From Escherichia coli (GTDB taxonomy: Bacteria; Pseudomonadota; Gammaproteobacteria; Enterobacterales; Enterobacteriaceae), in the NCBI RefSeq assembly GCF_048403405.1, contig NZ_CP183129.1: a stretch of 64,000 bases of DNA. One strand, written 5' to 3'. Position 1 is the stretch's first letter. Each line of letters starts with the position of its first letter. This document shows positions 3,076 through 64,000 of this stretch, one piece after another. A program made the translations under genes and the position numbers. The notes below the pieces were generated by a model. The model worked only from the letters and a program-made list of their open reading frames with translations, did not search any database and was not told the origin of the DNA.

Positions 3076-3078
3076 CAA

Positions 3079-7964: not shown

Positions 7965-7973
7965 GGAAAATGA

Positions 7974-8576
7974 ATGGAAGCGCGAATTTCAACTGAACGG
8001 CATGTGCAGCGCCAGCAGAAATTGAAGGAACAGGTCGATACGCGCGTCGCGGCGGCGATAGAGAAAAAAGGGATTTTGATTGTTTTCACCGGCAATGGCA
8101 AAGGGAAATCCACTGCCGCGTTTGGTACTGTGACGCGCGCGGTGGGTCATGGCAAAACGGTGGGGGTTGCGCAGTACATCAAGGGGCAATGGGACAACGG
8201 CGAATACAACCTTCTCCAGCCGCTGGGGGTTGAGTTTCATATTATGGGAACCGGTTTTACCTGGGAGACACAGAACCGGCAAGCGGATATCGACGCGGCG
8301 AAAGAGGTCTGGTCGGAAAGCAAACGGATGCTGGCTGACAAGCGTTACGACTTAGTGGTGCTTGATGAGCTGACCTATATGCTGGCTTACCATTATCTGG
8401 ACACCGAAGAAGTGATCGCTTCTCTGCAAAACCGCCCGGCACAACAAAGTGTCATTGTCACCGGACGCGGTTGCCACAGTCAGATATTAAAAATGGCGGA
8501 TACGGTCAGCGAAATCCGCCCCGTCAAACATGCTTTTGATAACGGCATTCAGGCGCAGCCGGGTATCGACTGGTAA
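7974..8576 (+). CDS. corrinoid (cob(I)alamin) adenosyltransferase, BtuR/CobO-family paralog
   Basis: 200 aa with P-loop-like FTGNGKGKSTAAFG motif; close resemblance to E. coli BtuR (about 196 aa) as recalled. Confidence 0.8.
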   Translation: MEARISTERHVQRQQKLKEQVDTRVAAAIEKKGILIVFTGNGKGKSTAAFGTVTRAVGHGKTVGVAQYIKGQWDNGEYNLLQPLGVEFHIMGTGFTWETQNRQADIDAAKEVWSESKRMLADKRYDLVVLDELTYMLAYHYLDTEEVIASLQNRPAQQSVIVTGRGCHSQILKMADTVSEIRPVKHAFDNGIQAQPGIDW

Positions 8577-8609
8577 TAACTGCGCCTGGCATCCCGCCAG
8601 GCGCAGGTT

Positions 8610-16506: not shown

Positions 16507-16691
16507 GCATTTCTTTTGTAGGCCGGATAAGGCATTCACGCCGCATCCGGCGCTGTTTGCCTGATGCGACGCTTGCGCGTCTTATCAGGCCTACGATTTC
16601 TGCATTTCTTTTGTAGGCCGGATAAGGCGTTCACGCCGCATCCGGCACTGGTTGCCTGATGCGACGCTTGTGCGTCTTATCAGGCCTGGGT
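16507..16691. repeat. two tandem REP/BIME-type palindromic units (about 95 bp each) between sucA and sdhB
   Basis: Near-identical direct copies beginning GCATTTCTTTTGTAGGCCGGATAAGGC...GCCTGATGCGACGCTTG.GCGTCTTATCAGGCCT at 16507 and 16602. Confidence 0.75.
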
Positions 16692-22918: not shown

Positions 22919-25378
22919 ATGGACACCGTGAATATTTATCGACTCTCTTTTATATCCTGTCTGGTCATGGCGATGCCTTGCGCATTGGCGGTCGAATTCA
23001 ATCTGAATGTTCTCGATAAATCAATGCGCGACCGCATTGATATTTCATTATTAAAGGAAAAAGGAGTCATTGCTCCCGGTGAATATTTTGTTAGCGTTGC
23101 GGTGAATAACAACCAAATCAGTAATGGGCAAAAAATCAACTGGCAAAAAAAGGGGGACAAAACCATTCCATGCATCAATGATTCACTGGTCGATAAATTT
23201 GGTTTAAAACCAGATATCCGTCAGTCCTTGCCACAGATAGATCGGTGTATTGATTTCAGTTCCCGACCTGAAATGCTCTTCAATTTCGATCAAGCCAATC
23301 AGCAACTGAATATCACTATTCCACAAGCCTGGCTGGCGTGGCACTCAGATAACTGGACTCCCCCCTCAACATGGAAAGAAGGTGTCGCCGGCGTCCTGAT
23401 GGACTACAACCTGTTTGCTAGCAGCTACCGCCCACAGGATGGTAGCAACAGCACTAACCTGAACGCCTATGGAACAGCCGGAATTAACGCGGGAGCATGG
23501 CGTTTACGCAGTGATTACCAATTGAATCAGACCGATAGCGATGATAACCATGAACAGTCAGGCGAAATATCACGCACCTATCTTTTTCGTCCATTACCGC
23601 AATTAGGTTCAAAATTAACCCTTGGTGAAACGGATTTCAGTTCCAATATTTTCGACGGCTTTTCTTATACCGGCGCGGCACTGGCAAGTGACGATCGGAT
23701 GTTACCGTGGGAGCTACGCGGCTACGCCCCACAAATCAGCGGCATTGCACAAACCAACGCCACCGTCACCGTGAGTCACTCAGGGCGAGTTATTTACCAG
23801 AAAAAAGTCCCACCAGGTCCGTTTATCATTGATGACCTTAATCAGTCCGTCCAGGGTACGTTGGATGTCAAAGTGACGGAAGAAGATGGTCGGGTGAACA
23901 ATTTCCAGGTTTCGGCAGCATCGACTCCCTTCCTGACTCGCCAGGGACAGGTTCGCTATAAATTGGCCGCGGGTCAGCCACGGCCCTCCATGTCACATCA
24001 AACTGAAAATGAAACCTTTTTTAGCAATGAAGTTTCCTGGGGGATGCTGTCAAATACCTCGCTGTACGGCGGCCTGCTGATTTCGGGTGACGACTACCAT
24101 TCTGCCGCAATGGGTATCGGGCAAAATATGCTCTGGCTTGGTGCATTGTCGTTTGATGTCACCTGGGCCAGTAGTCAGTTTGATACTCAGCAGGACGAGC
24201 GGGGCTTAAGTTACCGCTTTAATTACAGCAAACAAGTGGATGCCACTAACAGCACGATTTCGCTCGCCGCTTATCGCTTCTCAGATCGTCATTTTCACAG
24301 CTACGCCAACTATCTGGATCACAAATACAACGACAACGATGCGCAGGACGAAAAACAGACGATCAGCTTATCCGTGGGGCAACCGATTACCCCACTGAAC
24401 TTCAATCTGTACGCCAACCTGCTGCATCAAACCTGGTGGAATGCAGACGCCTCCACGACCGCCAACATCACGGCGGGTTTTAATGTTGATATTGGTAACT
24501 GGAGAGATATCTCGATCTCGACGTCATTCAATACAACCCATTACGAAGATAAAGATCGCGACAATCAGATTTACCTGTCGATTTCGCTCCCCTTCGGTAA
24601 CGGGGGGCGGGTCGGTTATGACATGCAAAACAGTAATCACAGCACCACGCACCGCATGTCGTGGAATGATACGTTAGATGAACGTAATAGCTGGGGCATG
24701 TCTACCGGACTGCAATCCGACCGTCCGGATAATGGAGCCCAGGTGAGCGGTAACTATCAGCACCTGAGTTCAGCGGGTGAGTGGGATATTTCTGGTACCT
24801 ATGCCGCCAATGATTACAGTTCCGTCAGCAGCAGCTGGAGCGGTTCTTTCACGGCAACTCAATATGGTGCAGCGTTCCATCGTCGCAGCTCCACCAATGA
24901 ACCACGTCTGATGGTCAGTACCGATGGCGTGGCAGATATTCCGGTTCAGGGCAATCTCGACTACACCAACCATTTTGGCATTGCGGTGGTGCCGTTGATT
25001 TCCAGTTATCAGCCTTCCACCGTGTCGGTGAACATGAATGATTTACCCGACGGCGTAACAGTGGCAGATAACGTTATCAAAGAAACGTGGATTGAAGGCG
25101 CGATAGGTTACAAATCGCTGGCTTCCCGTTCCGGTAAAGACGTTAACGTCATCATTCGCAACGCCAGCGGTCAGTTCCCTCCCCTCGGTGCGGATATCCG
25201 CCAGGATGATAGCGGCATTAGCGTGGGGATGGTTGGCGAGGAAGGACATGCCTGGTTAAGTGGAGTCGCTGAAAATCAACAATTTACCGTGGTCTGGGGT
25301 GATAGCCAGCGTTGCTCGATCCATCTTCCTGAACATATGGAAGACACCGCAAATCGCCTGATTTTACCTTGTCATTAA
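22919..25378 (+). CDS. ybgQ: fimbrial outer-membrane usher protein
   Basis: About 820 aa; start ambiguous (ATG 22877 or 22919, GTG 22928). Confidence 0.85.
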   Translation: MDTVNIYRLSFISCLVMAMPCALAVEFNLNVLDKSMRDRIDISLLKEKGVIAPGEYFVSVAVNNNQISNGQKINWQKKGDKTIPCINDSLVDKFGLKPDIRQSLPQIDRCIDFSSRPEMLFNFDQANQQLNITIPQAWLAWHSDNWTPPSTWKEGVAGVLMDYNLFASSYRPQDGSNSTNLNAYGTAGINAGAWRLRSDYQLNQTDSDDNHEQSGEISRTYLFRPLPQLGSKLTLGETDFSSNIFDGFSYTGAALASDDRMLPWELRGYAPQISGIAQTNATVTVSHSGRVIYQKKVPPGPFIIDDLNQSVQGTLDVKVTEEDGRVNNFQVSAASTPFLTRQGQVRYKLAAGQPRPSMSHQTENETFFSNEVSWGMLSNTSLYGGLLISGDDYHSAAMGIGQNMLWLGALSFDVTWASSQFDTQQDERGLSYRFNYSKQVDATNSTISLAAYRFSDRHFHSYANYLDHKYNDNDAQDEKQTISLSVGQPITPLNFNLYANLLHQTWWNADASTTANITAGFNVDIGNWRDISISTSFNTTHYEDKDRDNQIYLSISLPFGNGGRVGYDMQNSNHSTTHRMSWNDTLDERNSWGMSTGLQSDRPDNGAQVSGNYQHLSSAGEWDISGTYAANDYSSVSSSWSGSFTATQYGAAFHRRSSTNEPRLMVSTDGVADIPVQGNLDYTNHFGIAVVPLISSYQPSTVSVNMNDLPDGVTVADNVIKETWIEGAIGYKSLASRSGKDVNVIIRNASGQFPPLGADIRQDDSGISVGMVGEEGHAWLSGVAENQQFTVVWGDSQRCSIHLPEHMEDTANRLILPCH

Positions 25379-37706: not shown

Positions 37707-38210
37707 TTAAATTTTCTTATGTAATAGAGGTGAATAATCTTCCCAAAAATCCATACAAGCTTTACTTGCATAAAAGAATCCAGCGTCTGATTCATAAGAC
37801 ATAAACTGTGCAATAATAGATAGTTGTATATCTGAAAAATTAAAAACAAAATTCAAAAAATCATCGTGATCCCGATACTCAGGACATAAATATTGTTGAA
37901 TAAAATCGGATTCAAAAACCCAAAAATCATTCTTATTAAACAACGAGGCATAAATATACAGAGGGATGTAATAGCAGAATACTTTCTCAGGGAGGAATGT
38001 AATTCCTAACTCTAAAGCATAAGAGTCATCCTTTATTTTAAAATTGTTGGCTATTTCATTCCATTGTTTCTTTTGGAAAAAATTATATACAATATCCAGT
38101 TCCTCCAGCCCTGTAATATCATTTGAAATATGAGGTAATGGCTGGCATGGGAAATGAATCATAAGTTCATCATAGACTGCACTCTCGTTAGAGAAAATTA
38201 TTTTTTTCAT
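37707..38210 (-). CDS. candidate Rhs immunity protein (RhsI-like), cognate to the main Rhs toxin tip
   Basis: 167 aa from [16 protein letters not shown]; its ATG overlaps the rhs stop (ATGA at 38207-38210); low-GC, no signal peptide; position directly 3' of the toxin gene. Confidence 0.6.
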
Positions 38211-41200
38211 TTTATTAAGCCACTGCAATCAGCTGCTGTTTTATATGCTTTATTCTCTTCTTCCATATGGGCCTTATCTCCACCACCAAAGCACTGATTA
38301 TTAATCTGCTTTCTGACCGAAGCGCACGCCAAATTTATCTCGTACCGTCTCAATATTTCTTTTCTCAGCATCTGAGGAGCGCAAGCTCTAGACTGGTTAC
38401 ATAATCTGTTTTTTTCATTTTGTAAGTCACTCAGGTTCTGGGGACTACAGTTACCACCAGGATTTACACCTGACTTATGTTCATCTGTTAATTTGTCGGC
38501 TTCTGGATTAACTTTACGGCCATATTGATCTCTGCGTTGTTGCCCACTTTGGATAACACCACCTGATGAAAATAAACCGCAACTCATCAGTGCTACAACA
38601 CTAAGAATTAACGGATTTAACCCTTGTGGGTCTATCTCTGAGATCGGATTTAACGGATACTGATAAAAATTCCATCCCCCCTTAAGCCCAATCGGATCCT
38701 GAGTGATATACCGCCCCTGCAGCGGGTCATAATAGCGGTGGCGGTTGTAATACAGGCCGGACTCCTCATCATACTGCTGACCCGGCAGGCGGATGAGCTG
38801 CTGCAGCTGATGCGGGTTCTCTTCATTCAGCAGGTTGCCCCATTCATCGTATTCTGCGTACCACGCTGTTGTCCCTTCCGTGCTGACAAGCGCCAGCGGC
38901 AGGCCGCGATGGTCGCAGTGGTACAGGTGGATTTTTCGCGCCGGCGTGTACACCGGGTCCATCTGGTTTTGCATCTGCTCCACCGTCAGGCCGCACGATG
39001 CCAGCCAGCGGCGGCTTTCCTCGCTCACCCGGTCAGTAAGGATTTCACTTTCCAGCCGGTCGAGCATCTGCACCAGCACCGGCGGGAACACCACTCTGCC
39101 ACCGTCTTCGCCGCCGGACTGCTGAAGGGCATCCGCCAGGCTGCGGCGCTGCGTTTTCGCCAGCTCACCGGTGGCGGTTTCAACTCTGATGAGTGGCGTG
39201 AAGCTCCCCGGCTGATAAACCGTCTGGATGCGGGTTCTGTCGTTCTGTATTGTGGTCAGCCGGTCGCCGTCCCAGCCGTACCAGGTCACTTCCGGTTTCC
39301 GTGACAGCGACATCCAGCCCGTCAGGTCCCGTTCACGCCGCCATACCCGTTTTGCCACCCTGCGGCCCAGCGGGTCGTAAAGATAGCGACTTTCGACCAG
39401 CGGCTCTGCATATTGTGTCCGCGTGTAGTGCACCAGCCGGTGCCGGCTGTCGTAATGATACCGGTGAGTCCGCTCATCATCCGTGCGGATAACCCCTTCC
39501 GGGATGAGGTCGGTTTTCTCTGTCAGCCTGCCGTGACGGTCATACCGGTAAAGATAGTGCGCGTCACGGGCGATACGGTTATCCGGCCACATGCTGAGGG
39601 TGCTGTCCGGGTGCAGCTCCGGGTCGGGCAGGCGGTTGCCTGCCGGGTCCGTGGCATACGGGATGCGGATATCCAGATTCGCTGCGGTGGTGTGGACGCC
39701 GGTCAGCCTGCCGGTGTCGCTGTAGCTGTAACTCCGGGTCTGGCGCGGGCTGCTGATGCGGATGAGTTCGCCGTTGTCGTTCCAGGTGTAATCGCGGTCA
39801 TACTGCAGGCTGTTCAGGTGCTGGCTCTGTAACTGCCCGGCAGAGGTGTAAGCGGTGGTGAGTTCATAACGGCCGAAGCTGCGCAGCGTTTCCCGGTGCA
39901 GGCGGTCGCGGGTGAAATCCACCAGCGGTGTGTCGCCGAGTTTCATGCCTGACAGCCAGCCGCTGCCGTAGGTCAGCCATTCCACGGCGGGCAGGCTGTC
40001 CGGTATACAGCGGTTCGCCAGTCCCTGCGCGTTGTACGCATGTCTGGTTTCATGCTGCCAGAGCAGTGCTTCCGTCTGCGGGTGATGCACCGTCTGGCGC
40101 TCACCGGTCAGGCGGCCTTTCTCATCATACCCGTAATGCACCGTCACCCGGTGGCCTTCGCTGAGATGGCTGATGCCTGTCAGCCAGCCGCGTTCGTCAT
40201 ACTGCCACTGCTCTGCAGGTTCACCCTTCACGGTGCGGTGAGTGAGGCGGTCTGCTTCGTCATAGTGCCAGTGGGTGACCAGCCCCTCATCCTCGCTGCG
40301 GATAAGTTTACCGGTCAGGTCGTGGTGATAACGCTGTGTGCGGCCGTCAAAGCCGGTTTCCTGTATCAGCCGGTCAAGTACATCGTAACGGAAGGTGGTG
40401 TGGCTGCCGTTTTCACTGGTCAGGCGGATGACCCGCCCGGCAGCATCGTATTCCATACTGCGCGTCAGACCGCCCTGCGTGGTACGAACGGGCTTTCCCC
40501 ACGCATCGTACTGTGTCCCGTTTCTGCTGCCGTCCGGGGCAATGACGGCGGTCAGGTCACCGGCGGCGTTGTATTCATACCGCGTTTCATGGCCCTGCGT
40601 GTCTTTCACCGCAATTAACTGTCCACGGCTGTCGTATGCGCGGTACTGACTCAGCCCTTCCTCGCGGTGCACCGCCGTCACCTGACCAAAACGGTCATGG
40701 TCATAACGGGTTACATAACCGGAACAGTCAGTGACGGTCAGCAACTGACCGTAACGGCTCCATGTCATGGTTTTCCGGCTGCCGGTGGCATCTTCCGTTG
40801 CGCAGGGTAAGTCACTGTGTGGATTATCATAACGGTAGCGGGTGATATCGCCGTTGTGTGCGGTTTCCTGAATCAGACGGCCGGATTCATCATATTTGCG
40901 GCGCAACTCCAGCCCGTCAGTCCCGGTGGCTGACGTTAACTGGTTGTGGTGGTTATAGTAAAATGCCGATGCCCTGCCATCCGGTGTGGTGATGCGCGTG
41001 ATGAGTCCCGTCACCACATCCGGGCTGTACTCAGTCGTCCGGCCTGCGGCATCCGTCTGTGCCTTAAGCCCGCCCACCGCGTCAAACTGACTCTGCGTGA
41101 CGCTGCCGTCCGCGTGTTCCTTTTTCACCACCCGCTTCAGCCCGCCTTCGCCCTGCGTGTGCAGCACTTCACGGCGGTCCAGACTGTCGGTGATGGTGAT

Positions 41201-42358
41201 GCGGTCTTTCTCATACTGATACGTGTAGCTTAAGCCTGCCGGGTTTAGCTGTTCTGTCACCCGCCCGTCGCTGTCGTAACGGTAACGGATATCCGGCCGG
41301 CCCGTGTGACGGTGCGCCACCATCCGGCCCCGGTATTTATCATCGTAAGTAAAGCTGCGCACCTGTGTATTGCTGCGGTCATACACCGCCGCCAGTTCGC
41401 CGCGTGGCGTCCAGCCATAGCGCACCAGCGGCGCGGCAGGTAAATTCTCCGGGTATTCCGGGTCGTGCGTCAGCCACACGGCAGACAGACGGATGCCGTT
41501 GTCCCGGCCATATTCGGTGTAACCCGGCAGGGTATCAGGAAAAACGGACGGTTCCGTCCCGCCGGAAATGGCCTGCTGCCGGGCTTCTTCTGCCCGCTGC
41601 GCCTGCGTGGTCAGTACCAGCCGGAAGTGACGCCCGGCACCATCCGTCACGCCGGTGATTTCGCCGCTGAATTCGCCGCCAGCCTCACGGTGAAACGTCT
41701 GTGTGCGCCCGAAGCGGTCCACCAGCCCGGTCAGTACCCGGTACGGCGGCAGCGGCGCGGGCAGCACCTCATCCGCCTCCGGCACCCGCTCACACCAGCC
41801 GAGTACCCACCACGGCCCCTGCGGACTGTTTGTCGCCAGATAACGATGCGGACTCAGGCGAAGCTCTTCCGGCAGCGCCTGCCAGAGTGCGGCCAGCCGG
41901 TGACCTTCATCCAGTTTCGCCACGCCGCCGCGCACCAGCCAGAGTGACTCGCTGCGGCTGTAACCGTCCTCACCGGGAAACAGGTGCTCAAAATACAGGC
42001 TTCTGCCGCCGTTATCACTGAGTGTCAGTGTGTTATCGCGCAGCTGTAAGCGGATATCCGCAGGCATTTTCCAGCCGGGGCCGAGGCTCCCCACCGGCGC
42101 GGGCGTTTTTGTCCGGTAACTGCTGTAGGTGCGGGAGAGGATGAACGGCAGCGGGCCGGGCAGGGCAAGGTCGGTTTCGCCGGGAAGGACCTTCGCACCG
42201 AGCAGCGGATTGACCGGATGGCCGGACGTCACCCCGCCGGGGCACACCGAACAGGCCACGCCGGTGGGGGCACCAATACGTACCCCGGCTGAACCCTGAA
42301 CAATGCTACCGCCATACTGCGTCATGTCGCCCTGACGCGCCGCCGGTTTTCCGCTCAT
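38207..42358 (-). CDS. rhsC: Rhs-family polymorphic toxin (YD-repeat protein with variable C-terminal toxin domain)
   Basis: 1383 aa; N-terminus [34 protein letters not shown]; many YD repeats; conserved core end ...[17 protein letters not shown]...DPQGL followed by a unique Cys-rich tail; symbol from synteny with ybfA-kdp. Confidence 0.85.
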
Positions 42359-42602: not shown

Positions 42603-42809
42603 TCAGTAAAAATCACCAGTTGCCTTTTCGGCCTGATCCATCCACACCGGTTTCTCGCTGGTTTTCGACCAGACGCGGTGCAGGTAGCTGTAAAAGCGGG
42701 CGCGGTCTTTCCAGAAAAGCATGAAAGGCAGCGCCAGAACGCCCGCTGCAACCGCATAAGTACGGCGTAAAAAGATAAGCCATGCAGGATATTCTCTGTA
42801 GAGTTCCAT
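42603..42809 (-). CDS. ybfA: small DUF2517-family protein
   Basis: 68 aa [29 protein letters not shown]; located between rhsC and kdpF as in K-12. Confidence 0.6.
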
Positions 42810-43017
42810 ACTTTTCTCCCCCTTTTGTATCTACCCGGTGAATGGCACCGGAAAAATGAATTTGTTTATCTGATGAAAATAGTACCGCCTTTTGTGTAAT
42901 TTTACTACTCATCCGACCACCTATTTTTGCTTATTGATGGTTTATTTACATTCACACTGTAATTAAGTTACACAAAAGTTAAATTAATACTAACCATCAG
43001 TTAAATCATGGCTTTTG

Positions 43018-43121
43018 CCATTTTTATACTTTTTTTACACCCCGCCCGCAGATTTTTGCGAAATCTTTGCAGCCAGAATTCTACTCTTCCGGTATCACTT
43101 TTAGGCCACTGGAGGTGCACT
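43018..43121 (+). promoter_or_regulatory. kdpFABC promoter region with T-rich putative KdpE-binding segment
   Basis: TTTTTATACTTTTTTTACACCCCGCCCG about 75-100 bp upstream of the kdpF start; assignment by position and recalled K-12 biology. Confidence 0.45.
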
Positions 43122-43211
43122 GTGAGTGCAGGCGTGATAGCCGGCGTGTTGCTGGTGTTTTTATTACTGGGTTATCTGGTTTATGCCCTGATCAATGCGG
43201 AGGCGTTCTGA
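43122..43211 (+). CDS. kdpF: K+-transporting ATPase small subunit F
   Basis: 29-aa hydrophobic peptide [29 protein letters not shown] with GTG start; stop overlaps the kdpA start. Confidence 0.85.
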
Positions 43212-44884
43212 TGGCTGCGCAAGGGTTCTTACTGATTGCCACGTTTTTACTGGTGTTAATGGTGCTGGCGCGTCCTTTAGGCAGCGGGCTGGCGCGGCTG
43301 ATTAACGACATACCTCTTCCCGGTACAGCGGGCGTTGAACGTATACTCTTTCGTTTACCTGGCGTCTCTGACAGTGAGATGAACTGGAAGCAGTATCTCT
43401 CTGCCATTCTCGGCCTGAACATGCTGGGGCTGGCGGTGCTGTTTTTTATGTTGCTCGGTCAGCACTATCTGCCGCTTAATCCACAGCAGTTGCCAGGGCT
43501 GTCGTGGGATCTGGCGCTGAATACCGCCGTCAGCTTTGTCACCAATACCAACTGGCAATCTTATAGCGGTGAAACCACGTTGAGCTATTTCAGCCAGATG
43601 GCGGGCTTAACGGTACAAAACTTTCTTTCTGCCGCCAGCGGGATTGCGGTGATTTTTGCCCTCATTCGTGCGTTTACCCGCCAGAGCATGAGCACACTCG
43701 GGAATGCCTGGGTCGATCTGTTACGTATCACGTTATGGGTGCTAGTCCCTGTGGCGTTGTTGATCGCACTGTTTTTTATTCAACAAGGTGCACTGCAAAA
43801 CTTTCTGCCCTATCAGGCGGTGAATACCGTTGAAGGAGCGAAACAGCTGTTACCCATGGGTCCGGTGGCTTCTCAGGAAGCGATAAAGATGCTCGGCACT
43901 AACGGCGGTGGCTTCTTTAATGCCAACTCGTCGCATCCGTTTGAAAACCCAACCGCACTGACCAACTTCGTGCAGATGCTGGCGATCTTCTTGATCCCAA
44001 CGGCACTGTGCTTTGCCTTTGGCGAAGTGGCGGGCGATCGCCGTCAGGGGCGCATGTTGCTGTGGGCGATGTCAGTGATTTTTGTCATCTGCGTAGGCGT
44101 GGTGATGTGGGCAGAAGTTCAGGGTAATCCTCATCTGCTGGCGCTGGGTGCGGACAGCAGCATCAATATGGAAGGTAAAGAGAGCCGTTTCGGCGTGCTG
44201 GTCAGTAGCCTGTTTGCGGTCGTGACTACGGCGGCTTCCTGCGGCGCGGTGATTGCGATGCATGATTCGTTTACCGCCCCCGGTGGCATGGTGCCGATGT
44301 GGCTGATGCAAATTGGTGAAGTGGTATTCGGCGGTGTCGGTTCTGGTCTTTACGGCATGATGCTGTTTGTCCTGCTGGCGGTGTTTATTGCCGGGCTGAT
44401 GATTGGTCGTACACCGGAATATCTGGGTAAAAAAATCGACGTACGCGAGATGAAACTGACCGCACTGGCGATTCTGGTCACCCCGACGCTGGTGCTGATG
44501 GGCGCGGCGCTGGCAATGATGACCGACGCCGGACGTAGCGCCATGCTCAACCCGGGCCCGCATGGTTTTAGCGAAGTGCTGTACGCCGTGTCGTCCGCCG
44601 CTAACAACAACGGCAGCGCCTTTGCCGGATTAAGCGCCAACTCCCCATTCTGGAACTGTTTGCTGGCGTTCTGCATGTTTGTTGGTCGCTTCGGGGTGAT
44701 TATCCCGGTGATGGCAATTGCCGGTTCGTTGGTGAGTAAAAAGAGCCAACCCGCCAGCTCCGGCACGCTGCCAACGCACGGCCCGCTGTTTGTTGGCCTG
44801 TTAATCGGCACCGTGTTGCTGGTTGGCGCACTGACCTTTATCCCTGCCCTGGCGCTTGGTCCGGTGGCGGAATATCTCTCCTGA
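43211..44884 (+). CDS. kdpA: K+-transporting ATPase subunit A
   Basis: 557 aa from [30 protein letters not shown]. Confidence 0.95.
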
Positions 44885-44906: not shown

Positions 44907-46955
44907 ATGAGTCGTAAACAACTGGCGCTATTCGAACCAACACTTGTCGTTCAGGCGCTGAAAGAAGCGGTGAAAAAATTAAACCCGCAGGCGCAATGGC
45001 GCAATCCGGTGATGTTTATCGTCTGGATCGGCAGTCTGCTGACCACCTGTATTAGCATCGCGATGGCAAGCGGTGCGATGCCTGGCAATGCGCTGTTTAG
45101 CGCGGCCATTAGCGGCTGGCTGTGGATCACCGTACTGTTCGCTAATTTCGCCGAGGCGCTGGCAGAAGGCCGCAGTAAAGCGCAGGCCAACAGCCTGAAA
45201 GGGGTGAAAAAAACTGCCTTTGCCCGCAAGCTGTGTGAGCCGAAATATGGCGCTGCGGCGGACAAAGTTCCCGCCGATCAACTGCGTAAAGGCGATATCG
45301 TACTGGTAGAAGCTGGCGATATTATCCCCTGCGATGGTGAAGTCATTGAAGGGGGCGCATCGGTCGATGAAAGCGCCATCACCGGGGAATCGGCACCGGT
45401 GATCCGTGAATCCGGCGGCGATTTTGCCTCCGTCACTGGCGGCACGCGTATTCTTTCTGACTGGCTGGTGATTGAGTGCAGCGTTAACCCCGGCGAGACA
45501 TTTCTGGATAGGATGATCGCGATGGTGGAAGGCGCACAGCGACGCAAAACGCCGAACGAGATTGCCCTGACCATTCTCCTGATTGCCCTGACTATCGTCT
45601 TTTTACTGGCAACCGCCACGCTGTGGCCGTTTTCCGCGTGGGGCGGTAATGCAGTGAGTGTAACGGTACTGGTGGCGCTGCTGGTCTGTCTGATCCCAAC
45701 CACTATTGGCGGCCTGTTGTCAGCGATCGGCGTCGCCGGGATGAGTCGGATGCTGGGCGCGAATGTGATTGCCACCAGCGGACGTGCAGTTGAAGCGGCA
45801 GGTGACGTTGACGTTCTGCTACTGGATAAAACCGGCACCATCACACTCGGTAACCGTCAGGCGTCGGAGCTTATCCCCGCGCAGGGCGTGGATGAAAAAA
45901 CGCTGGCTGACGCCGCACAACTGGCTTCACTGGCTGATGAAACGCCGGAAGGCCGCAGTATTGTGATCCTCGCCAAGCAGCGTTTTAACCTGCGCGAGCG
46001 CGATGTGCAGTCGCTCCATGCCACCTTTGTACCGTTTACTGCGCAAAGCCGGATGAGCGGGATCAACATCGACAACCGCATGATCCGTAAAGGTTCTGTC
46101 GATGCCATTCGCCGCCATGTTGAGGCTAACGGCGGTCACTTCCCTGCCGATGTCGATCAAAAAGTCGATCAGGTTGCGCGTCAGGGAGCCACGCCGCTGG
46201 TAGTAGTAGAAGGCTCCCATGTGCTTGGCGTTATTGCGCTGAAAGATATCGTCAAAGGCGGTATTAAAGAGCGCTTCGCCCAGCTGCGCAAAATGGGCAT
46301 TAAAACGGTGATGATTACCGGCGATAACCGTCTGACTGCCGCCGCGATAGCTGCGGAAGCGGGTGTCGATGATTTTCTCGCCGAAGCGACACCGGAGGCC
46401 AAGCTGGCATTGATTCGTCAGTATCAGGCGGAAGGCCGTTTGGTGGCGATGACCGGCGACGGCACCAACGATGCTCCGGCGCTGGCGCAGGCAGATGTCG
46501 CGGTGGCGATGAACTCTGGTACTCAGGCGGCGAAAGAAGCGGGCAATATGGTGGATCTCGACTCTAACCCGACCAAGTTGATCGAGGTGGTACATATTGG
46601 CAAACAGATGCTGATGACCCGTGGCTCGCTGACCACCTTCAGCATTGCCAACGATGTGGCGAAATACTTCGCCATTATTCCGGCGGCGTTCGCGGCAACG
46701 TATCCACAGTTAAATGCGCTGAACATCATGCGCCTGCATTCGCCCGACTCCGCCATTCTCAGTGCGGTCATTTTCAACGCCTTGATTATCGTCTTTTTGA
46801 TTCCCCTGGCGTTAAAAGGCGTGAGTTATAAACCGCTTACCGCTTCTGCCATGTTGCGCCGTAACTTATGGATTTACGGTCTGGGTGGGCTGCTGGTGCC
46901 GTTTATTGGTATCAAAGTCATTGATTTACTGCTGACCGTTTGCGGTCTGGTGTGA
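44907..46955 (+). CDS. kdpB: K+-transporting ATPase subunit B (P-type ATPase)
   Basis: 682 aa; DKTGTIT phosphorylation motif. Confidence 0.96.
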
Positions 46956-46963
46956 GGTTTACC

Positions 46964-47536
46964 ATGAGTGGATTACGTCCGGCATTATCAACATTTATCT
47001 TTCTGTTATTGATCACTGGCGGCGTTTACCCGCTGCTGACCACCGTGCTGGGGCAATGGTGGTTTCCCTGGCAGGCCAACGGTTCGTTGATTCGTGAAGG
47101 TGATACGGTGCGCGGTTCGGCATTAATCGGGCAGAATTTTACCGGCAACGGCTATTTTCATGGTCGCCCGTCGGCAACGGCAGAAATACCCTATAATCCA
47201 CAGGCTTCTGGCGGGAGCAATCTGGCGGTCAGTAACCCTGAGCTGGATAAACTAATAGCCGCACGCGTTGCTGCATTACGGGCCGCTAACCCGGATGCCA
47301 GCGCGAGCGTTCCGGTTGAACTGGTGACGGCATCGGCAAGCGGGCTGGACAATAATATCACCCCGCAAGCGGCGGCATGGCAGATCCCACGCGTGGCGAA
47401 AGCGCGTAATCTCAGCGTTGAACAGCTCACGCAACTGATCGCAAAATACAGCCAACAACCGCTGGTGAAATATATCGGCCAGCCGGTCGTCAACATTGTC
47501 GAACTCAATCTGGCGCTGGATAAGCTTGATGAATAA
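46964..47536 (+). CDS. kdpC: K+-transporting ATPase subunit C
   Basis: 190 aa from [27 protein letters not shown]. Confidence 0.93.
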
Positions 47537-50213
47537 CGAACCCTTACGTCCCGACCCCGATCGTCTGCTGGAACAAACTGCCGCGCCGCATCGGGGGAAG
47601 CTGAAAGTTTTCTTCGGTGCCTGCGCAGGCGTCGGGAAGACCTGGGCGATGCTGGCAGAAGCCCAGCGACTGCGGGCGCAAGGGCTGGATATTGTGGTTG
47701 GCGTGGTAGAAACCCACGGGCGGAAAGATACCGCCGCAATGCTGGAAGGGCTGGCTGTTCTGCCGTTAAAACGCCAGGCGTACCGTGGGCGGCACATCAG
47801 CGAGTTTGATCTCGATGCCGCCCTCGCCCGCCGTCCGGCACTGATCTTAATGGACGAACTGGCGCACAGTAATGCGCCAGGTTCTCGTCATCCCAAACGC
47901 TGGCAGGATATTGAAGAGTTGCTGGAAGCTGGCATTGATGTTTTCACTACCGTCAACGTTCAACATCTGGAAAGTCTGAATGATGTGGTCAGCGGCGTCA
48001 CCGGAATTCAGGTACGAGAAACCGTGCCCGATCCTTTTTTCGATGCCGCCGACGACGTGGTGCTGGTGGACTTGCCCCCGGACGATCTGCGCCAGCGGCT
48101 GAAAGAAGGCAAAGTCTATATTGCCGGGCAGGCGGAGCGCGCCATTGAACATTTTTTCCGCAAAGGCAATCTGATCGCCCTGCGCGAACTGGCACTGCGC
48201 CGTACTGCCGATCGCGTAGATGAGCAAATGCGCGCCTGGCGGGGGCATCCTGGCGAAGAGAAAGTCTGGCACACGCGCGACGCGATCCTTTTATGCATCG
48301 GGCATAACACCGGCAGCGAAAAACTGGTCCGCGCGGCGGCGCGGCTGGCGTCACGGCTGGGAAGCGTCTGGCACGCGGTGTATGTTGAAACCCCTGCCCT
48401 GCACCGCTTACCGGAGAAAAAACGTCGGGCAATTCTCAGCGCCTTACGTCTGGCGCAGGAGCTGGGCGCGGAGACGGCAACACTTTCTGATCCAGCGGAA
48501 GAGAAAGCGGTAGTGCGTTATGCCCGTGAACATAATCTCGGCAAGATTATTCTCGGTCGCCCGGCCTCGCGCCGCTGGTGGCGTCGGGAAACGTTTGCTG
48601 ACCGACTGGCGCGAATCGCCCCCGATCTCGATCAGGTGCTGGTCGCGCTTGATGAACCACCCGCCCGCACGATAAACAACGCGCCGGATAGCCGCTCTTT
48701 TAAAGACAAGTGGCGGGTACAGATTCAGGGATGCGTGGTTGCCGCCGCGTTATGCGCCGTTATCACCTTAATTGCCATGCAGTGGCTGATGGCGTTTGAT
48801 GCCGCCAACCTGGTGATGCTGTATCTGCTTGGCGTGGTGGTGGTGGCGCTATTTTATGGACGCTGGCCTTCGGTGGTTGCCACCGTTATTAATGTGGTGA
48901 GTTTCGATCTCTTTTTTATCGCCCCACGCGGCACGCTCGCCGTCTCTGATGTGCAATATCTGCTGACCTTCGCGGTGATGTTAACCGTCGGGCTGGTGAT
49001 CGGGAACCTTACTGCGGGTGTGCGTTATCAGGCGCGGGTAGCCCGTTACCGCGAGCAACGCACACGGCACTTATATGAAATGTCGAAAGCTCTGGCTGTG
49101 GGCCGCAGTCCGCAGGACATCGCCGCCACCAGCGAACAATTTATTGCCTCCACGTTTCATGCCCGCAGTCAGGTGTTGTTGCCCGATGACAACGGTAAAT
49201 TGCAGCCGTTAACACATCCGCAAGGAATGACGCCGTGGGACGATGCCATCGCGCAGTGGAGTTTTGATAAAGGCCTGCCTGCGGGCGCGGGCACCGACAC
49301 GTTACCCGGTGTACCGTACCAGATTCTGCCGTTAAAAAGCGGCGAGAAAACCTACGGACTGGTGGTGGTAGAACCGGGGAATCTGCGTCAGTTGATGATC
49401 CCGGAACAGCAGCGCCTGCTGGAGACATTTACGCTGTTAGTCGCCAATGCGCTTGAGCGGCTGACGCTGACCGCCAGCGAAGAACAGGCGCGGATGGCAA
49501 GCGAACGAGAACAGATCCGCAACGCCCTGCTGGCGGCGCTTTCGCATGATTTACGCACGCCGCTTACGGTGCTGTTCGGTCAGGCAGAAATCTTAACGCT
49601 CGATCTGGCAAGCGAAGGATCGCCTCACGCCCGCCAGGCCAGCGAGATTCGCCAGCATGTGCTGAACACGACCCGACTGGTGAATAATCTACTGGATATG
49701 GCGCGAATTCAGTCCGGCGGCTTTAATTTGAAGAAAGAGTGGTTAACGCTGGAAGAAGTGGTCGGCAGCGCGCTGCAAATGCTGGAACCGGGTTTATCGT
49801 CGCCCATCAATCTTTCTCTGCCAGAACCGCTGACCTTAATCCACGTTGACGGGCCGCTCTTTGAACGGGTGCTGATTAATCTGCTGGAGAACGCGGTGAA
49901 ATACGCGGGGGCGCAGGCCGAAATTGGTATCGATGCCCACGTTGAGGGCGAGAAGCTACAACTGGATGTCTGGGATAACGGCCCCGGTCTTCCGCCAGGC
50001 CAGGAGCAGACGATATTTGATAAGTTTGCTCGCGGGAATAAAGAGTCGGCGGTACCGGGTGTCGGGCTTGGGCTGGCAATTTGTCGGGCGATTGTGGATG
50101 TACACGGCGGCACCATTACCGCGTTCAACCGACCGGAAGGTGGTGCCTGTTTTCGTGTTACACTTCCCCAGCAAACTGCCCCTGAACTTGAAGAATTTCA
50201 TGAGGATATGTGA
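47529..50213 (+). CDS. kdpD: sensor histidine kinase KdpD
   Basis: 894 aa from [14 protein letters not shown]; His-kinase [11 protein letters not shown] motif; overlaps kdpC by 8 nt. Confidence 0.95.
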
Positions 50214-50887
50214 CAAACGTTCTGATTGTTGAAGATGAACAGGCTATTCGTCGCTTTCTGCGCACGGCGCTGGAGGGCGACGGTATGCGCGTCTTTGAGG
50301 CCGAAACGCTGCAACGCGGCTTGCTGGAAGCGGCAACCCGTAAGCCAGATTTGATTATTCTCGATCTCGGCCTGCCCGATGGTGATGGGATTGAGTTTAT
50401 CCGCGACCTGCGCCAGTGGAGCGCGGTGCCGGTGATTGTGCTTTCCGCACGTAGCGAAGAGAGCGATAAAATCGCCGCGCTGGATGCCGGAGCGGATGAT
50501 TACCTGAGTAAGCCATTTGGTATTGGCGAATTGCAGGCCCGTCTGCGCGTCGCTTTACGCCGCCACTCCGCCACCACCGCGCCCGATCCGCTGGTGAAAT
50601 TTTCCGATGTTACCGTCGATTTAGCGGCTCGTGTGATCCATCGCGGTGACGAAGAGGTGCATCTCACCCCGATTGAGTTCCGCCTGCTGGCGGTGCTACT
50701 TAACAATGCCGGAAAAGTACTCACCCAGCGCCAGTTACTCAATCAGGTGTGGGGACCAAACGCGGTCGAACACAGTCATTATTTGCGTATTTATATGGGG
50801 CATCTGCGACAAAAACTGGAACAGGATCCCGCCCGGCCTCGCCATTTCATTACTGAAACCGGTATTGGGTATCGGTTTATGCTTTAG
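50210..50887 (+). CDS. kdpE: response regulator KdpE (OmpR family)
   Basis: 225 aa; GTG start overlapping the kdpD stop (GTGA). Confidence 0.95.
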   Translation: MTNVLIVEDEQAIRRFLRTALEGDGMRVFEAETLQRGLLEAATRKPDLIILDLGLPDGDGIEFIRDLRQWSAVPVIVLSARSEESDKIAALDAGADDYLSKPFGIGELQARLRVALRRHSATTAPDPLVKFSDVTVDLAARVIHRGDEEVHLTPIEFRLLAVLLNNAGKVLTQRQLLNQVWGPNAVEHSHYLRIYMGHLRQKLEQDPARPRHFITETGIGYRFML

Positions 50888-50899
50888 GCGGTTAAATGC

Positions 50900-50990
50900 T
50901 GGATCCGGCATGAACGCCTTATCCGGCCTACAAAATAGCGCAAATTCAATATATTGCACCATCCTCGCAGGCCTGATAAGCGTAGCGCAT
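50900..50990. repeat. REP-type palindromic elements in the kdpE-pgm spacer
   Basis: GCCTTATCCGGCCTAC and AGGCCTGATAAGCGTAGCGCATCAGGC motifs. Confidence 0.6.
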
Positions 50991-51005
50991 CAGGCAGTCA
51001 TAAGT

Positions 51006-51036
51006 AAAAAAGGGCGATCTTCCGACCGCCCTTTTT
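51006..51036. terminator. bidirectional intrinsic terminator between kdpE and pgm
   Basis: AAAAAAGGGCG...CGCCCTTTTT. Confidence 0.65.
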
Positions 51037-51050
51037 CTTATTTAATGTGT

Positions 51051-58362: not shown

Positions 58363-60027
58363 TTACTCGCCTACTTTCGCCCAGGTATCACGCAGCCCAA
58401 CGGTGCGATTAAATACCGGTTTTTCCGCCGTAGAATGGCGGCTGTCGAGGCAGAAATAACCTTCACGCTCAAACTGGAATGCTTTACCCGCTACCGCGTC
58501 TTTCAGAGACGGTTCAGCAAAGCCCTGTTTGATCACCAGCGATTCCGGGTTAATCACCGACAGGAAATCATCCGCAGCACCTGGGTTCGGCACGCTGAAC
58601 AGACGATCGTACAGGCGGATTTCAACCGGCAGCGCATGTGCCGAGCTCACCCAGTGAATAACGCCTTTCACTTTACGACCATCTGCCGGATCTTTGCTTA
58701 AGGTGTCGGCGTCATAAGTACAGAAGATGGTGGTGATATTGCCTTCGGCATCTTTCTCCACGCGTTCTGCCTTAATGACGTAAGCATTACGCAGACGCAC
58801 TTCTTTACCCAGCACCAGACGCTTGTACTGCTTGTTAGCTTCTTCGCGGAAATCGGCGCGGTCGATCCAAATCTCACCGCTAAACGGCACCTGACGGCTC
58901 CCCATTTCCGGTTTGTTCGGATGGTTCGGCATGGTAACCATTTCGCCTTCGCCCTGGTAGTTTTCGATAACCAGTTTCACCGGATCGATAACCGCCATTG
59001 CGCGCGGGGCGTTTTCGTTGAGATCTTCACGGATGCAGGATTCCAGCGACGCCATTTCAATGGTGTTGTCCTGCTTGGTCACGCCGATGCGTTTGCAGAA
59101 CTCACGAATAGAAGCCGCAGTGTAACCACGACGACGCAGACCGGAAATGGTCGGCATACGCGGGTCATCCCAGCCTTCAACGTGCTTGTCGGTCACCAGC
59201 AGGTTCAGCTTACGCTTGGACATCACAGTGTATTCCAGATTCAGGCGCGAGAATTCGTACTGGCGCGGGTGAACAGGAATGGTGATGTTGTCCAACACCC
59301 AGTCGTACAGGCGACGGTTGTCCTGGAACTCAAGCGTACACAGAGAGTGCGTAATACCTTCCAGCGCATCGCTGATGCAATGGGTGAAGTCGTACATCGG
59401 GTAGATGCACCACTTGTTGCCAGTCTGGTGGTGTTCAGCAAATTTAATGCGGTACAGCACCGGATCGCGCATTACGATAAATGGCGACGCCATGTCGATT
59501 TTCGCACGCAGGCAGGCTTTACCTTCTTCAAAACCGCCGGCACGCATTTTTTCGAACAGCGCCAGGTTCTCTTCAACGCTGCGGTCGCGGTACGGGCTGT
59601 TTTTACCCGGCTGCGTCAGGGTGCCACGGTATTCGCGGATCTGTTCCGGCGTCAATTCATCAACGTACGCCAGGCCTTTATTGATCAGTTCGATCGCATA
59701 GGCGTGGAGCTGATCAAAATAATCGGAGGAGTAACGGACGTTACCAGACCAGTGAAAACCTAACCACTCAACGTCGTTTTTGATCGACTCGACATACTCG
59801 ATATCTTCTTTTACCGGGTTAGTGTCGTCGAAACGCAGGTTGCACTGGCCTTTATAGTCCTGGGCGATCCCGAAGTTCAGGCAGATAGATTTCGCATGGC
59901 CAATATGCAGATAGCCATTCGGCTCCGGCGGGAAACGGGTGTGTACTGTGGTGTGCTTACCACTGGCCAGATCTTCATCGATGATCTGACGGATAAAGTT
60001 AGTCGGGCGGGCTTCTGCCTCACTCAT
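58363..60027 (-). CDS. glnS: glutaminyl-tRNA synthetase
   Basis: 554 aa; HIGH motif ([14 protein letters not shown]) and VMSKR (KMSKS-type) motif. Confidence 0.97.
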
Positions 60028-60246
60028 CGTGGATTCCTCAAAGCGTAAACAACGTATAACGGCGTATGATCTTATAAGCGGGACAGGCTGACAACTGTTA
60101 GTTAGTGAAAAAGTGGTTTTGCGTAAGATATTGGGGCGTTTTCTGCGCTACAGCCAGCAGATCCTCGCGCTGGAGACGTAAGGCCAAACGTCGCCAGCCT
60201 GACGCGTCTATTAAATTTCCGGATGAGCTGGCCGCAGAGTCGTAGA

Positions 60247-61008
60247 TTAATCGGCTATGATTAAACGCGTCGATAAGGACGCAAGCGTTCTACGCGTCTG
60301 CCCATCAAGCTGATTATCCGTAATAATCTCTGTCAGTTCATTAAGATGCGCGATATTAAACAGCGACCATGAACCGTATTTTGAGCTGTCAGCCAGGAGA
60401 ATTTTGCGCGAAGCATGCGCGATAAGATCGCGTTTTAGTGCGGCTTTCTCTTCCGTGGGTGCTGTAATACCCTTTTCAAGATCCCAGCTGTTACAGCTTA
60501 AAAATGCCACGTCCGGCCAGGTATTTTGCAGCAATTTACGACCATGTTCGCCAATGCAGGACTGGCTGGAGTCGTCGATACGTCCACCGATAATCGTCAC
60601 TTCAATCTGCTTGAATTCAGCCAAAAAAAGCGCGATATGCAGGTCGCTGGTGATCACGCGAAGCGGTAAATGTGTAATCTGCCGCGCAAGTTCAATCATT
60701 GTCGTACCGGCATCAAGGACGACGGAATCCCCCGCTTTGACCATTGACGCCGCTGCGCTGGCGATGGCATGTTTTTCCGCCAGGCTGCGCTGCATTTTCT
60801 CATGGGTAGTCGGTTGGGTAGGAATAAACCGGTTGAGGGTCACACCGCCGTGTGTACGGCTGATAACACCCTGCTCATCGAGTTTTATCAGGTCTCGACG
60901 AATCGTGGCCGGCGACGCATTGGTTACCGCCACCAGCTCATCAACGGTGACCAGATTATGGCTTTTCAGGTAATCCATGATCTGCTCTAACCGGTTATAT
61001 CCCTTCAT
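60247..61008 (-). CDS. DeoR-family transcriptional regulator
   Basis: 253 aa; N-terminal HTH plus C-terminal sugar-phosphate-binding domain. Confidence 0.85.
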
Positions 61009-61009
61009 T

Positions 61010-61996
61010 TTATTCTCGCGAAATCTGCATTGCTAACTGGATGGAAACTGCCATGCTCTCAGACTTGGCTTTTCCTGTCCAGGCAATATCAAACGCGGTG
61101 CCGTGGTCGGCAGAAGTGCGAATAAATGGCAACCCGGCGGTGATATTCACCCCATCATAAAATCCAAGCAGTTTTAAAGGGATATGCCCCTGATCGTGGT
61201 ACATAGCCACTACCATATCGAATAGCCCTTCATGGCATTGCATAAACACGGTATCTGGCGGGCACGGGCCAGTAACATCAATATCTTCGGCCTGCATTGC
61301 TTCAATCGCAGGCGCGATAATCTCGATTTCTTCAGTGCCGAATAAACCGTGTTCCCCTGCATGTGGATTTACACCCGCCACGGCAATACGCGGACGCTCA
61401 ATACCAACACGTTTCAGGAAGTGGTTCGCAACTCGAATAACCGTTTTGACCCTTTCACCATTCAAAGTATCCAGGAATTTACGCAGTGAGATATGCGTCG
61501 AAATATGGATAACCTTGAGCTTATCGGTATAGAGCACCATCGCGTACTCTTTGCTGCCGGTAAGATGGGCCAGCAATTCCGTATGCCCCGGATAGTTATG
61601 CCCGCCAAGATGCAACGCTTCTTTATTCAGCGGCGCAGTGGCTATGGCTTTCACCTCGCCTGATAAGGCCAGGGCCGTTGCACGTTTGATACAGCGATAC
61701 GCTAAATCGCCTGCCGCAGCCTGTACCACTCCGGGTGTCAGCGCATCGGGGTTAGCCAGCGGCTCATCCATCACGTTAATCACGCCGGGAGCAAAATGGG
61801 CGTCGCACACCTTTTCAATGACGCGTAACTCTGCCTTCGGCGTGATATTCATCGCCATAATACGTCTCAGCGTGCGCACACAGCCCACCACCACCACCGG
61901 GGCACCAGCAAGCCCGGCTTCGCTCAGGGATTTAATAATGATCTCCGGGCCAATACCCGCCGGGTCGCCCATCGTTACCGCAATAATATTATTCAC
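61010..61996 (-). CDS. PdxA-family NAD-dependent dehydrogenase (PdxA2-like; 4-hydroxythreonine-4-phosphate dehydrogenase family)
   Basis: 328 aa with [19 protein letters not shown] and [12 protein letters not shown] motifs typical of PdxA. Confidence 0.85.
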
Positions 61997-63224
61997 TACG
62001 CTTCTCCTCGATAAAATTCAGAACCTGATGCAACGTGGTCTCATCGCCAAACCCACCGGCTTTCGTCATCACCGAACGGGACCAGACGCCGCCCAGAAAG
62101 TGACCGTATGGAACGCATTGCGCCACCTTCGCCGTAATACGAAATCCGGTCGCGCCTAACGCACTGGCTGTTGCCATTGCGACATCACCACCAGAGAGAT
62201 AAAGCGCATCGGGCATTGCGCGAAGCAGAACTTGCCGGGTAAGTTCGCCAAGAAACCGGCAAATTTTTTCCCCAAGCGCAGCGCGACTCATCTGCCAACG
62301 CTGGCAAAGGGTGTCGATCTGGTGCCTTGCTACAGAATCGTTACAGGTGTGGACAATGCAGTGGTCGCCTTTCTGCAAGGCCTGCACAATACGCGCGTCA
62401 TAGTCACTGGCATTGCCTGCCAGAATGTGTTCAACATCGACGTATATCTGTGTGATACGTGGGTGTGAATGAAGTGTGGCGATCTGCCGTTGAGCGATTT
62501 CGCTCATTGAACCAATAATGGCCAGCACGGTGGGTGGCGGCATAATCGTGGAGCGCCGGGCAACGGCATCACAAATACCAGCGGAGCCGACCAGCAGCAG
62601 CGGTTGTTTAGCCTGCATCACAGCGGCAGCGATGCGATCCAGGTCGCTGTCCGTCTGCGCATCTATCACGCCAATCCACGGTTGCTCATAAGACAAATGG
62701 CTGAGCTGAGAAACCGTAACGGGCTGGCATGGAATGGCCGTCTGCAACCGGATGATGTCCGCAATTCGGGCGCTCAATACCGGGGTTTTCGGATCGCTGG
62801 CAAACTCGGTTTCCGTTATCCGCACACCGTTTACCCAACACTCACCGGCCACTGTGGTCCTTCCCGCCTGAGGAAATGCGGGGGCAACCACTGCGCCCGT
62901 TATACCGCATGCCTTCATCAGGGCTTCAATTTCTGCGCCAATATTGCCTCGCAGCGTGGAATCTATCTTTTTAATCACGAGCGGAGGGTTATTCGCCAGA
63001 GGGAGATGACTCATCAGCGAGGTTATTTTCATCGCCGCCAGCTTAGGATCCATCGCCCGGCTGTCGCTGTTAATCACCCATACGCTGGCATCACCGCGAT
63101 AAGGCATTTCAAAGGCCACATCAACTGTATGCCCCACCTGCGCCAGGCTTACCCCCGCGTCATTGGCTCCCGTGAAATCATCGGCAACGACGAGAATGCT
63201 CGGCTTAGTGATTCCCTTTTCCAT
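61989..63224 (-). CDS. DUF1537-family four-carbon acid-sugar kinase (OtnK/DtnK-like)
   Basis: About 411 aa from MEKGITKPSILVVADDFTGANDAGV (GGAG 5 nt upstream; the longest ORF extends to 63266); stop overlaps the PdxA-like start. Confidence 0.8.
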   Translation of the reverse strand: MEKGITKPSILVVADDFTGANDAGVSLAQVGHTVDVAFEMPYRGDASVWVINSDSRAMDPKLAAMKITSLMSHLPLANNPPLVIKKIDSTLRGNIGAEIEALMKACGITGAVVAPAFPQAGRTTVAGECWVNGVRITETEFASDPKTPVLSARIADIIRLQTAIPCQPVTVSQLSHLSYEQPWIGVIDAQTDSDLDRIAAAVMQAKQPLLLVGSAGICDAVARRSTIMPPPTVLAIIGSMSEIAQRQIATLHSHPRITQIYVDVEHILAGNASDYDARIVQALQKGDHCIVHTCNDSVARHQIDTLCQRWQMSRAALGEKICRFLGELTRQVLLRAMPDALYLSGGDVAMATASALGATGFRITAKVAQCVPYGHFLGGVWSRSVMTKAGGFGDETTLHQVLNFIEEKRSE

Positions 63225-63393
63225 CATCACTCCAGGTTGTTTTATGATAACAATGATTATATTCAATCACGATTGATTAAATGTGAGCAAGCTCAAGTTA
63301 TTAATCACTCGAATAAATTATAAAATTAGACCATGTTACGTAGGCTACGGCATTTTGAATGATTGAATTCAATCACCAGAAGAGAGGTTATTT

Positions 63394-64000
63394 GTGGTAA
63401 TTATCAATAGCACGATACTGAGCGGCGCAGGCGCTATCCCTTCCCTGACGTCGCTCTTACCCGACATCAGAAAAATGCTGCTGGTCACTGACCGTAATAT
63501 TGCGCAGCTCGACGGTGTGCAGCAGATTCGCGCCTTACTGGAAAAGCACTGCCCGCAGGTTAACGTTATCGATAATGTGCCCGCAGAGCCCACGCATCAT
63601 GATGTGCGCCAGCTAATGGACGCCCCTGGCGATGCCTCTTTTGATGTGGTGGTCGGGATCGGCGGTGGCAGCGTGTTGGATGTGGCGAAGCTGCTATCGG
63701 TGCTTTGCCATCCACAATCACCAGGGCTGGATGCGCTGCTTGCGGGTGAAAAACCGACTCAGAGGGTGCAATCATGGTTGATTCCTACAACCGCCGGAAC
63801 CGGCTCAGAAGCCACGCCGAATGCGATTCTGGCAATCCCTGAGCAAAGCACGAAGGTGGGTATTATTTCCCCGGTGCTGTTACCAGACTATGTGGCGCTT
63901 TTCCCGGAACTGACCACCAGCATGCCCGCGCATATTGCGGCGTCCACGGGCATTGATGCTCTTTGCCACTTACTGGAGTGTTTTACCGCGACCGTGGCAA
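63394..64000 (+). CDS. iron-containing (group III) alcohol dehydrogenase family protein, 3'-truncated by the window end
   Basis: GTG start preceded by GAGAGG; translation VVIINSTILSGAGAIPSL...MLLVTDRNI...FDVVVGIGGGSVLDVAKLL... with GGGS motif; absent from the ORF track because no stop codon lies inside the window. Confidence 0.7.
   Translation, partial: MVIINSTILSGAGAIPSLTSLLPDIRKMLLVTDRNIAQLDGVQQIRALLEKHCPQVNVIDNVPAEPTHHDVRQLMDAPGDASFDVVVGIGGGSVLDVAKLLSVLCHPQSPGLDALLAGEKPTQRVQSWLIPTTAGTGSEATPNAILAIPEQSTKVGIISPVLLPDYVALFPELTTSMPAHIAASTGIDALCHLLECFTATVA

Follow-up and report, generated by a model that had tools for sequence, protein, structure and literature searches.

A GTG-initiated kdpF gene of 29 codons and the gene junctions of the kdpFABC-kdpDE locus in an Escherichia coli chromosome

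Since 1999, KdpF, which is subunit F of the P-type K+ pump KdpFABC, has been a textbook case of a bacterial micro-protein with a function. Crystal and cryo-EM structures have shown it since 2017, and it is visible in every KdpFABC structure. Its comparison with other small single-helix subunits draws in part on reviews. AcrZ on AcrB, CydX on cytochrome bd, and MgtS and MgtR on Mg2+ transporters are likewise one-helix peptides of <50 amino acid residues that accompany a large transporter or oxidase, and CydX, like KdpF, is encoded within the operon of its partner. These peptides have no sequence relationship to KdpF. Unlike this group, KdpF is described as a structural stabiliser and not as a modulator of specificity or degradation. 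Its status as a subunit was established in 1999; it had been found by inspection of the kdp operon (Gassel et al., as cited in passages of PMC12648545, PMC10723866, and PMC3618439). According to the passages that mention that work, KdpF is purified together with KdpABC and makes the solubilised complex more stable (Gassel et al. 1999, cited in PMC12648545 and PMC10723866), and it is dispensable in vivo but needed for the stability and activity of the purified complex (Gassel et al. 1999, cited in PMC3618439). KdpF, a single helix located at the KdpA/KdpB interface, does not move during the pump cycle and has been described as an accessory subunit with a stabilising role (bioRxiv 10.1101/2021.01.09.426067).

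The window analysed in this study is a stretch of 64,000 nucleotides that corresponds to the glnS-fur-pgm-kdp-rhs-sdh-suc region of the E. coli chromosome. When the window sequence was translated, it was found that an ORF on the plus strand (43122-43211) begins with a GTG codon (43122-43124), runs through 29 sense codons, and ends with a TGA stop codon (43209-43211). The original prediction, which was made by reading the sequence, had described a GTG-initiated hydrophobic peptide of 29 residues at this place, and it was borne out base for base. The computed hydropathy (a GRAVY score of 1.98 over the 29 residues and a best 19-residue Kyte-Doolittle window of 2.69) is sufficient for one transmembrane helix. 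A GGAGG Shine-Dalgarno sequence (43111-43115, plus strand) lies 6 nt 5′ of the GTG codon, is unchanged in K-12, and occurs also in Pluralibacter. Since the mechanical ORF list contains 141 frames of at least 20 residues in the 10.5 kb around the kdp locus, a 29-codon ORF alone is no evidence of a gene. What sets this ORF apart from chance ORFs is the combination of matches to curated HMMs, its position, the upstream GGAGG, and its conservation. It is almost certainly kdpF, which opens the kdpFABC-kdpDE locus of the E. coli chromosome as its first cistron and encodes the single transmembrane helix subunit of KdpFABC.

E. coli K-12 KdpF (UniProt P36937) has the same length, the same GTG start, and the same upstream GGAGG, while the K-12 kdpF gene has the same TGATG junction with kdpA and the same first place in the operon. 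The alignment with K-12 kdpF, which had been proposed as a check, was run and gave identity at 28 of 29 residues and 88 of 90 nucleotides, with the same GTG and the same coordinates. A G/A difference at position 43140 results in the T7A substitution, and the second difference, at 43148, is synonymous. Judged by this alignment, the window gene is an already-known gene, orthologous to K-12 kdpF, and its product carries one conservative substitution. The status of a KdpABC subunit at the KdpA/KdpB interface, which is known for the K-12 protein, would apply to the window KdpF with its 28 of 29 identical residues.

The family models point to the same identity. KdpF scored 27.8 bits with PF09604 (Potass_KdpF; curated cut-off, 21.2), 74.3 bits with the NCBIfam equivalog model NF011332 (cut-off, 56; aligned over residues 1-29 of 29), and 31.5 with TIGR02115 of NCBIfam (cut-off, 26.85). 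The KdpF chains of 25 PDB entries (14 + 11; for example, 6hra_D and 5mrw_D) showed 28/29 identity, and the sole difference is again T7A. Like the members of the KdpF family (PF09604; TIGR02115) in general, which are peptides of about 26-39 residues, the window KdpF is a short single hydrophobic helix encoded just 5′ of kdpA, and it has the family-conserved Tyr18, Leu19, Leu23, Glu27, and C-terminal Phe. The C-terminus is N-A-E-A-F in enterobacteria in contrast to R-P-E-(R/D)-F in most other lineages sampled. The PF09604 scores in the sample ranged from 26.4 to 43.6 bits, and the window KdpF lies at the low end because its enterobacterial C-terminus deviates. As for the identity proposed at the outset, the family models, the PDB chains, the RefSeq coordinates, and the conservation upstream of kdpA all agree on kdpF, and no observation speaks against it.

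Is this gene common in E. coli? Of 5426 complete E. coli genomes, 5423 matched a 351-nt query around kdpF. In RefSeq, both kdpF and kdpA are annotated under the match in all 20 matches listed of the 5423, and kdpF is annotated in all 32 RefSeq matches listed. Thus, the remark in the original prediction that this small gene is easy to miss in automated annotation fails for the E. coli RefSeq records listed, while it may keep some truth in distant taxa. The same remark held for kdpF before dedicated HMMs existed. The nearest strain, TUM14771, is collinear over the whole 64-kb window with 38 mismatches (99.94% identical). The RefSeq genes kdpF, kdpA, kdpB, kdpC, kdpD, and kdpE of both TUM14771 and K-12 MG1655 lie at positions that correspond one to one to the window coordinates, and K-12 has GTG for kdpF and kdpE, the same GGAGG 5′ of kdpF, and the same five junctions. 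The exact 90-nt kdpF allele of the window, with T7A, is a common one, present in 807 of the 5423 complete genomes.

A script that checked the length, reading frame, start and stop codons, and any internal stops of the six kdp genes revealed that all six frames are intact in the window. The genes that follow kdpF on the plus strand are kdpA (43211-44884; ATG; 557 residues; the channel-like K+ selecting subunit; PF03814, 796 bits), kdpB (44907-46955; ATG; 682 residues; the P-type ATPase subunit; Pfam E1-E2_ATPase and Hydrolase), kdpC (46964-47536; ATG; 190 residues; PF02669, 234.7 bits), kdpD (47529-50213; ATG; 894 residues; the sensor histidine kinase; Pfam KdpD, DUF4118, GAF_3, HisKA, and HATPase_c), and kdpE (50210-50887; GTG; 225 residues; the response regulator; Pfam Response_reg and Trans_reg_C). 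The stop codon of kdpF overlaps with the ATG of kdpA by 1 nt in the sequence TGATG, as predicted; base 43211 is the last A of TGA and the first A of ATG. The predicted overlaps of kdpC with kdpD (8 nt, ATGAATAA) and of kdpD with kdpE (4 nt, GTGA) were both exact. However, the wider description of chained overlaps through the operon is right for only three of the five junctions, since kdpA and kdpB are separated by a gap of 22 nt and kdpB and kdpC by a gap of 8 nt. The reading of kdpF is correct but ordinary, and it matters little as a discovery. It may rather be regarded as a positive control, in which a 29-codon non-ATG gene and its junctions were recovered exactly from the raw sequence.

The Shine-Dalgarno sequence of kdpA, GGAGG (43199-43203, plus strand), lies inside codons 26-28 of kdpF (GCG GAG GCG, Ala-Glu-Ala), 7 nt before the kdpA ATG, and Pluralibacter kdpF contains the same GGAGG. 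A GAGGA sequence is present inside kdpD, 4 nt 5′ of the kdpE GTG, and no clear Shine-Dalgarno sequence was found in the 20 nt upstream of the kdpD start. Since a GGAGG within the last kdpF codons is combined with TGATG, a ribosome that ends kdpF would terminate on the kdpA start. The arrangements of kdpF/kdpA and kdpD/kdpE are typical of translational coupling, to which the anatomy points; a direct demonstration of kdp translational coupling was not found in the literature looked at.

The conservation of kdpF was assessed outside E. coli. A tblastn search with KdpA against plasmid and megaplasmid records gave 472 records from many phyla, and the DNA 5′ of kdpA was inspected in 11 distant taxa chosen from these KdpA-bearing records. 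I found a KdpF-like ORF just 5′ of kdpA in 10 of the 11 taxa, up to the archaeon Halobacterium. An annotated kdpF lies directly 5′ of kdpA in Pluralibacter, Ideonella, Azospirillum, Rhizobium, Acetobacter, Listeria, Rhodococcus, and Halobacterium. Three plasmid records have no annotated kdpF, and two of the three carry a KdpF-like ORF 5′ of kdpA. The ORF of Deinococcus radiodurans pMP1 (L011:307-387; MILALALISLALFVYLLYSLLRPEDF) is absent from the PLSDB table and passes PF09604 with 36.7 bits, and that of Lactiplantibacillus plantarum pBF_15 (L010:392-472; MVLVLGTILTIFLLAYLIYVLVKGES), which is also absent from the table, falls below the PF09604 cut-off. In Synechocystis PCC 6714 pSYLC, no KdpF-like ORF was found upstream of kdpA. 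Since the PLSDB gene tables are incomplete by design, the original Deinococcus and Lactiplantibacillus records may annotate kdpF. Nevertheless, genes of the kdpF type may still be missing from gene tables in distant lineages such as those of the Deinococcus and Lactiplantibacillus plasmids.

The PF09604 cut-off was passed by 9 of the 10 non-E. coli KdpF peptides, the exception being that of Lactiplantibacillus. A lack of conservation in related genomes had been named as the observation that would speak against the peptide; with a KdpF-like ORF in 10 of 11 taxa and nine of these above the Pfam cut-off, that expectation fails. In a 12-peptide KdpF alignment that spans 11 taxa, Y18 does not vary, and conservation at L15, L19, L23, and E27 is at least 90%. 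The pattern Y-L-x-x-x-L-x-x-x-E-x-F is common to KdpF peptides across phyla. Pluralibacter kdpF is 80% identical to the window kdpF at the DNA level, and the differences at codon positions 1, 2, and 3 number 6, 2, and 10. This third-position bias is what would be expected of a translated frame under purifying selection. On the other hand, ungapped identity to Pluralibacter is only 39% in the 120 nt 5′ of kdpF, where the KdpE box is an exception in being shared. Among the sampled taxa, the spacing of kdpF and kdpA lies between -4 and +69 nt. Thus, the overlap is an enterobacterial detail and not a family trait.

Upstream of kdpF, a KdpE recognition site (43023-43039, plus strand) consists of the direct-repeat half-sites TTTATA (43023-43028) and TTTACA (43034-43039) with a 5-bp spacer. 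This stretch is identical to that of K-12, whose half-site sequences were defined experimentally and lie at -72 to -50 relative to the transcription start of kdpFABC (PMC3264566). Counting from the published footprint would place the transcription start near 43090-43095, and the predicted leader of about 30 nt would hold the GGAGG and the GTG. The kdpFABC core promoter (43056-43087, plus strand) comprises TTGCGA (43056-43061) and a -10-like TACTCT (43082-43087). Position 43085 within the -10-like hexamer is T in the window and C in K-12 (TACTCT versus TACCCT), and neither hexamer is closer to TATAAT. Only 25 of the 5423 E. coli genomes have exactly the same 82 nt at 43040-43121; thus, the T at 43085 is a rare promoter allele. 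A scan of 42800-43300 for the sigma-70 consensus gave no match, which is expected and uninformative because the kdpFABC promoter is activator-dependent. In the same interval, the number of terminator-like matches (2, as compared with 0.7 ± 0.9 expected) is not clearly above chance, and one of them, at 43140-43156, is located within kdpF, where its T-run consists of Phe and Leu codons. The half-sites are present, and intact kdpD and kdpE lie downstream of the window kdpF, which would be under the predicted low-K+ control by KdpD and KdpE.

The upstream region also bears on the choice of the start codon. The mechanical ORF list includes an uninterrupted ATG-started frame at 43008-43211, and the true product could then be a protein of 67 residues whose C-terminal part is formed by the 29 codons. 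However, the extension spans the KdpE half-sites at 43023-43039 and the core promoter and lies 5′ of the transcription start placed at about 43092; thus, ATG 43008 would be outside the predicted kdp mRNA. The ATG is not preceded by a GGAGG, which occurs in 42951-43215 only at 43111 and 43199. The end-to-end alignment with NF011332 (residues 1-29 of 29) fits a KdpF of 29 residues and not a protein of 67, the RefSeq annotation is a kdpF gene of 90 nt, and the KdpF chain in the solved structures has 29 residues. The divergence from Pluralibacter follows the same boundary, with 39% identity in the 120 nt upstream as against 80% in the 90-nt kdpF. The start at ATG 43008 was rejected because the extension covers the KdpE site and the promoter, and I regard the 67-residue product as extremely improbable.

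Another doubt concerns whether the short ORF encodes any peptide at all. It might be a chance frame, or an untranslated leader or ribosome-loading region for kdpA that has no peptide of its own. Short ORFs are abundant by chance, as the 141 frames around the locus illustrate; KdpF is reported to be non-essential for Kdp function in vivo (PMC3618439), and the Shine-Dalgarno sequence of kdpA does sit in the 3′ end of kdpF. However, the KdpF peptide is resolved in 25 PDB entries, which refutes this reading for K-12, and the cited work on its co-purification with the complex argues in the same direction (Gassel 1999, in the passages of PMC12648545 and PMC10723866 that cite it). Moreover, it is the peptide sequence, beyond the DNA alone, that is conserved across phyla, and this also holds in Rhizobium, where 69 nt separate kdpF from kdpA and the two genes do not overlap. 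A frame without a product therefore has next to no chance of being correct, and the ORF is best read as kdpF, translated from GTG into a peptide of 29 residues.

For the kdpF thus read, the following working is proposed. At limiting K+, phospho-KdpE would bind TTTATA/TTTACA about 60 bp 5′ of the transcription start and activate the operon. Ribosomes would initiate at the kdpF GTG, served by the GGAGG 6 nt upstream, and produce the single transmembrane helix of 29 residues, which would sit at the KdpA/KdpB interface and stabilise the pump. The TGATG and the embedded GGAGG would put the kdpA start where the kdpF ribosome terminates, a classic arrangement for translational coupling, and the kdpC/kdpD and kdpD/kdpE overlaps may couple the sensor and regulator genes likewise. 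A limited literature search found no ribosome-profiling statement specific to kdpF. In mycobacteria, an action of KdpF on the sensor kinase KdpD has been proposed (PMC3618439). It is unlikely that E. coli KdpF is more than a passive stabiliser and also acts on KdpD, or, separately, that the C-to-T difference at 43085 alters kdp expression; the sequence lends support to neither idea. If KdpF did act on KdpD, the 1-nt kdpF/kdpA overlap would fix the stoichiometry of KdpF and the pump, and an excess of KdpF would feed back on signalling.

Several other features of the window and of the sampled records were observed. Beyond an intergenic stretch at 50888-51050, the next gene after kdpE is pgm, which lies on the opposite strand. 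In K-12, speFL and speF come directly after kdpE and are followed by potE and further genes before pgm; this speFL-speF-potE segment is absent from the window. Only 350 of the 5426 complete E. coli genomes cover the kdpE-pgm adjacency to at least 80%. A short part of the kdpE-pgm spacer (50897-51002) is a dispersed repeat that occurs about 100,000 times in the collection (median, 15 copies per genome), and it is presumably a REP/BIME-type element. On the other side of the kdp operon, a 1383-residue Rhs core protein is encoded at 38207-42358 on the minus strand, adjoining ybfA. In TUM14771, the Rhs core gene is followed by a small ORF, an orphan Rhs C-terminal fragment, and an ISAs1 transposase remnant, and most of the first 20 listed of the 38 mismatches between the window and this strain are inside the rhs gene, especially at 41252-41523.

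Two tandem matches to Rfam naRNA4 (RF02564) are located at 16521-16591 and 16616-16686 on the plus strand (79.6 and 86.8 bits), and mapping of the coordinates onto TUM14771 places both copies in the sdhB-sucA intergenic region. According to the TUM14771 annotation, when mapped onto the window, the fimbrial usher gene ybgQ (about 22919-25378) is interrupted by an internal stop and is a pseudogene in this lineage. By the same mapping, a methylaspartate mutase/methylaspartate ammonia-lyase/fumarate hydratase cluster lies within 1-9500 beyond sucD, and a D-threonate kinase/dehydrogenase cluster adjoining glnS lies within about 59000-64000. K-12 presumably does not have the methylaspartate and D-threonate clusters at the positions of the window ends. 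Among the sampled records, Rhizobium leguminosarum pRLN2 has a 'hypothetical protein' of 51 residues encoded between kdpA and kdpB (L006:2214-2369), where E. coli has no gene.
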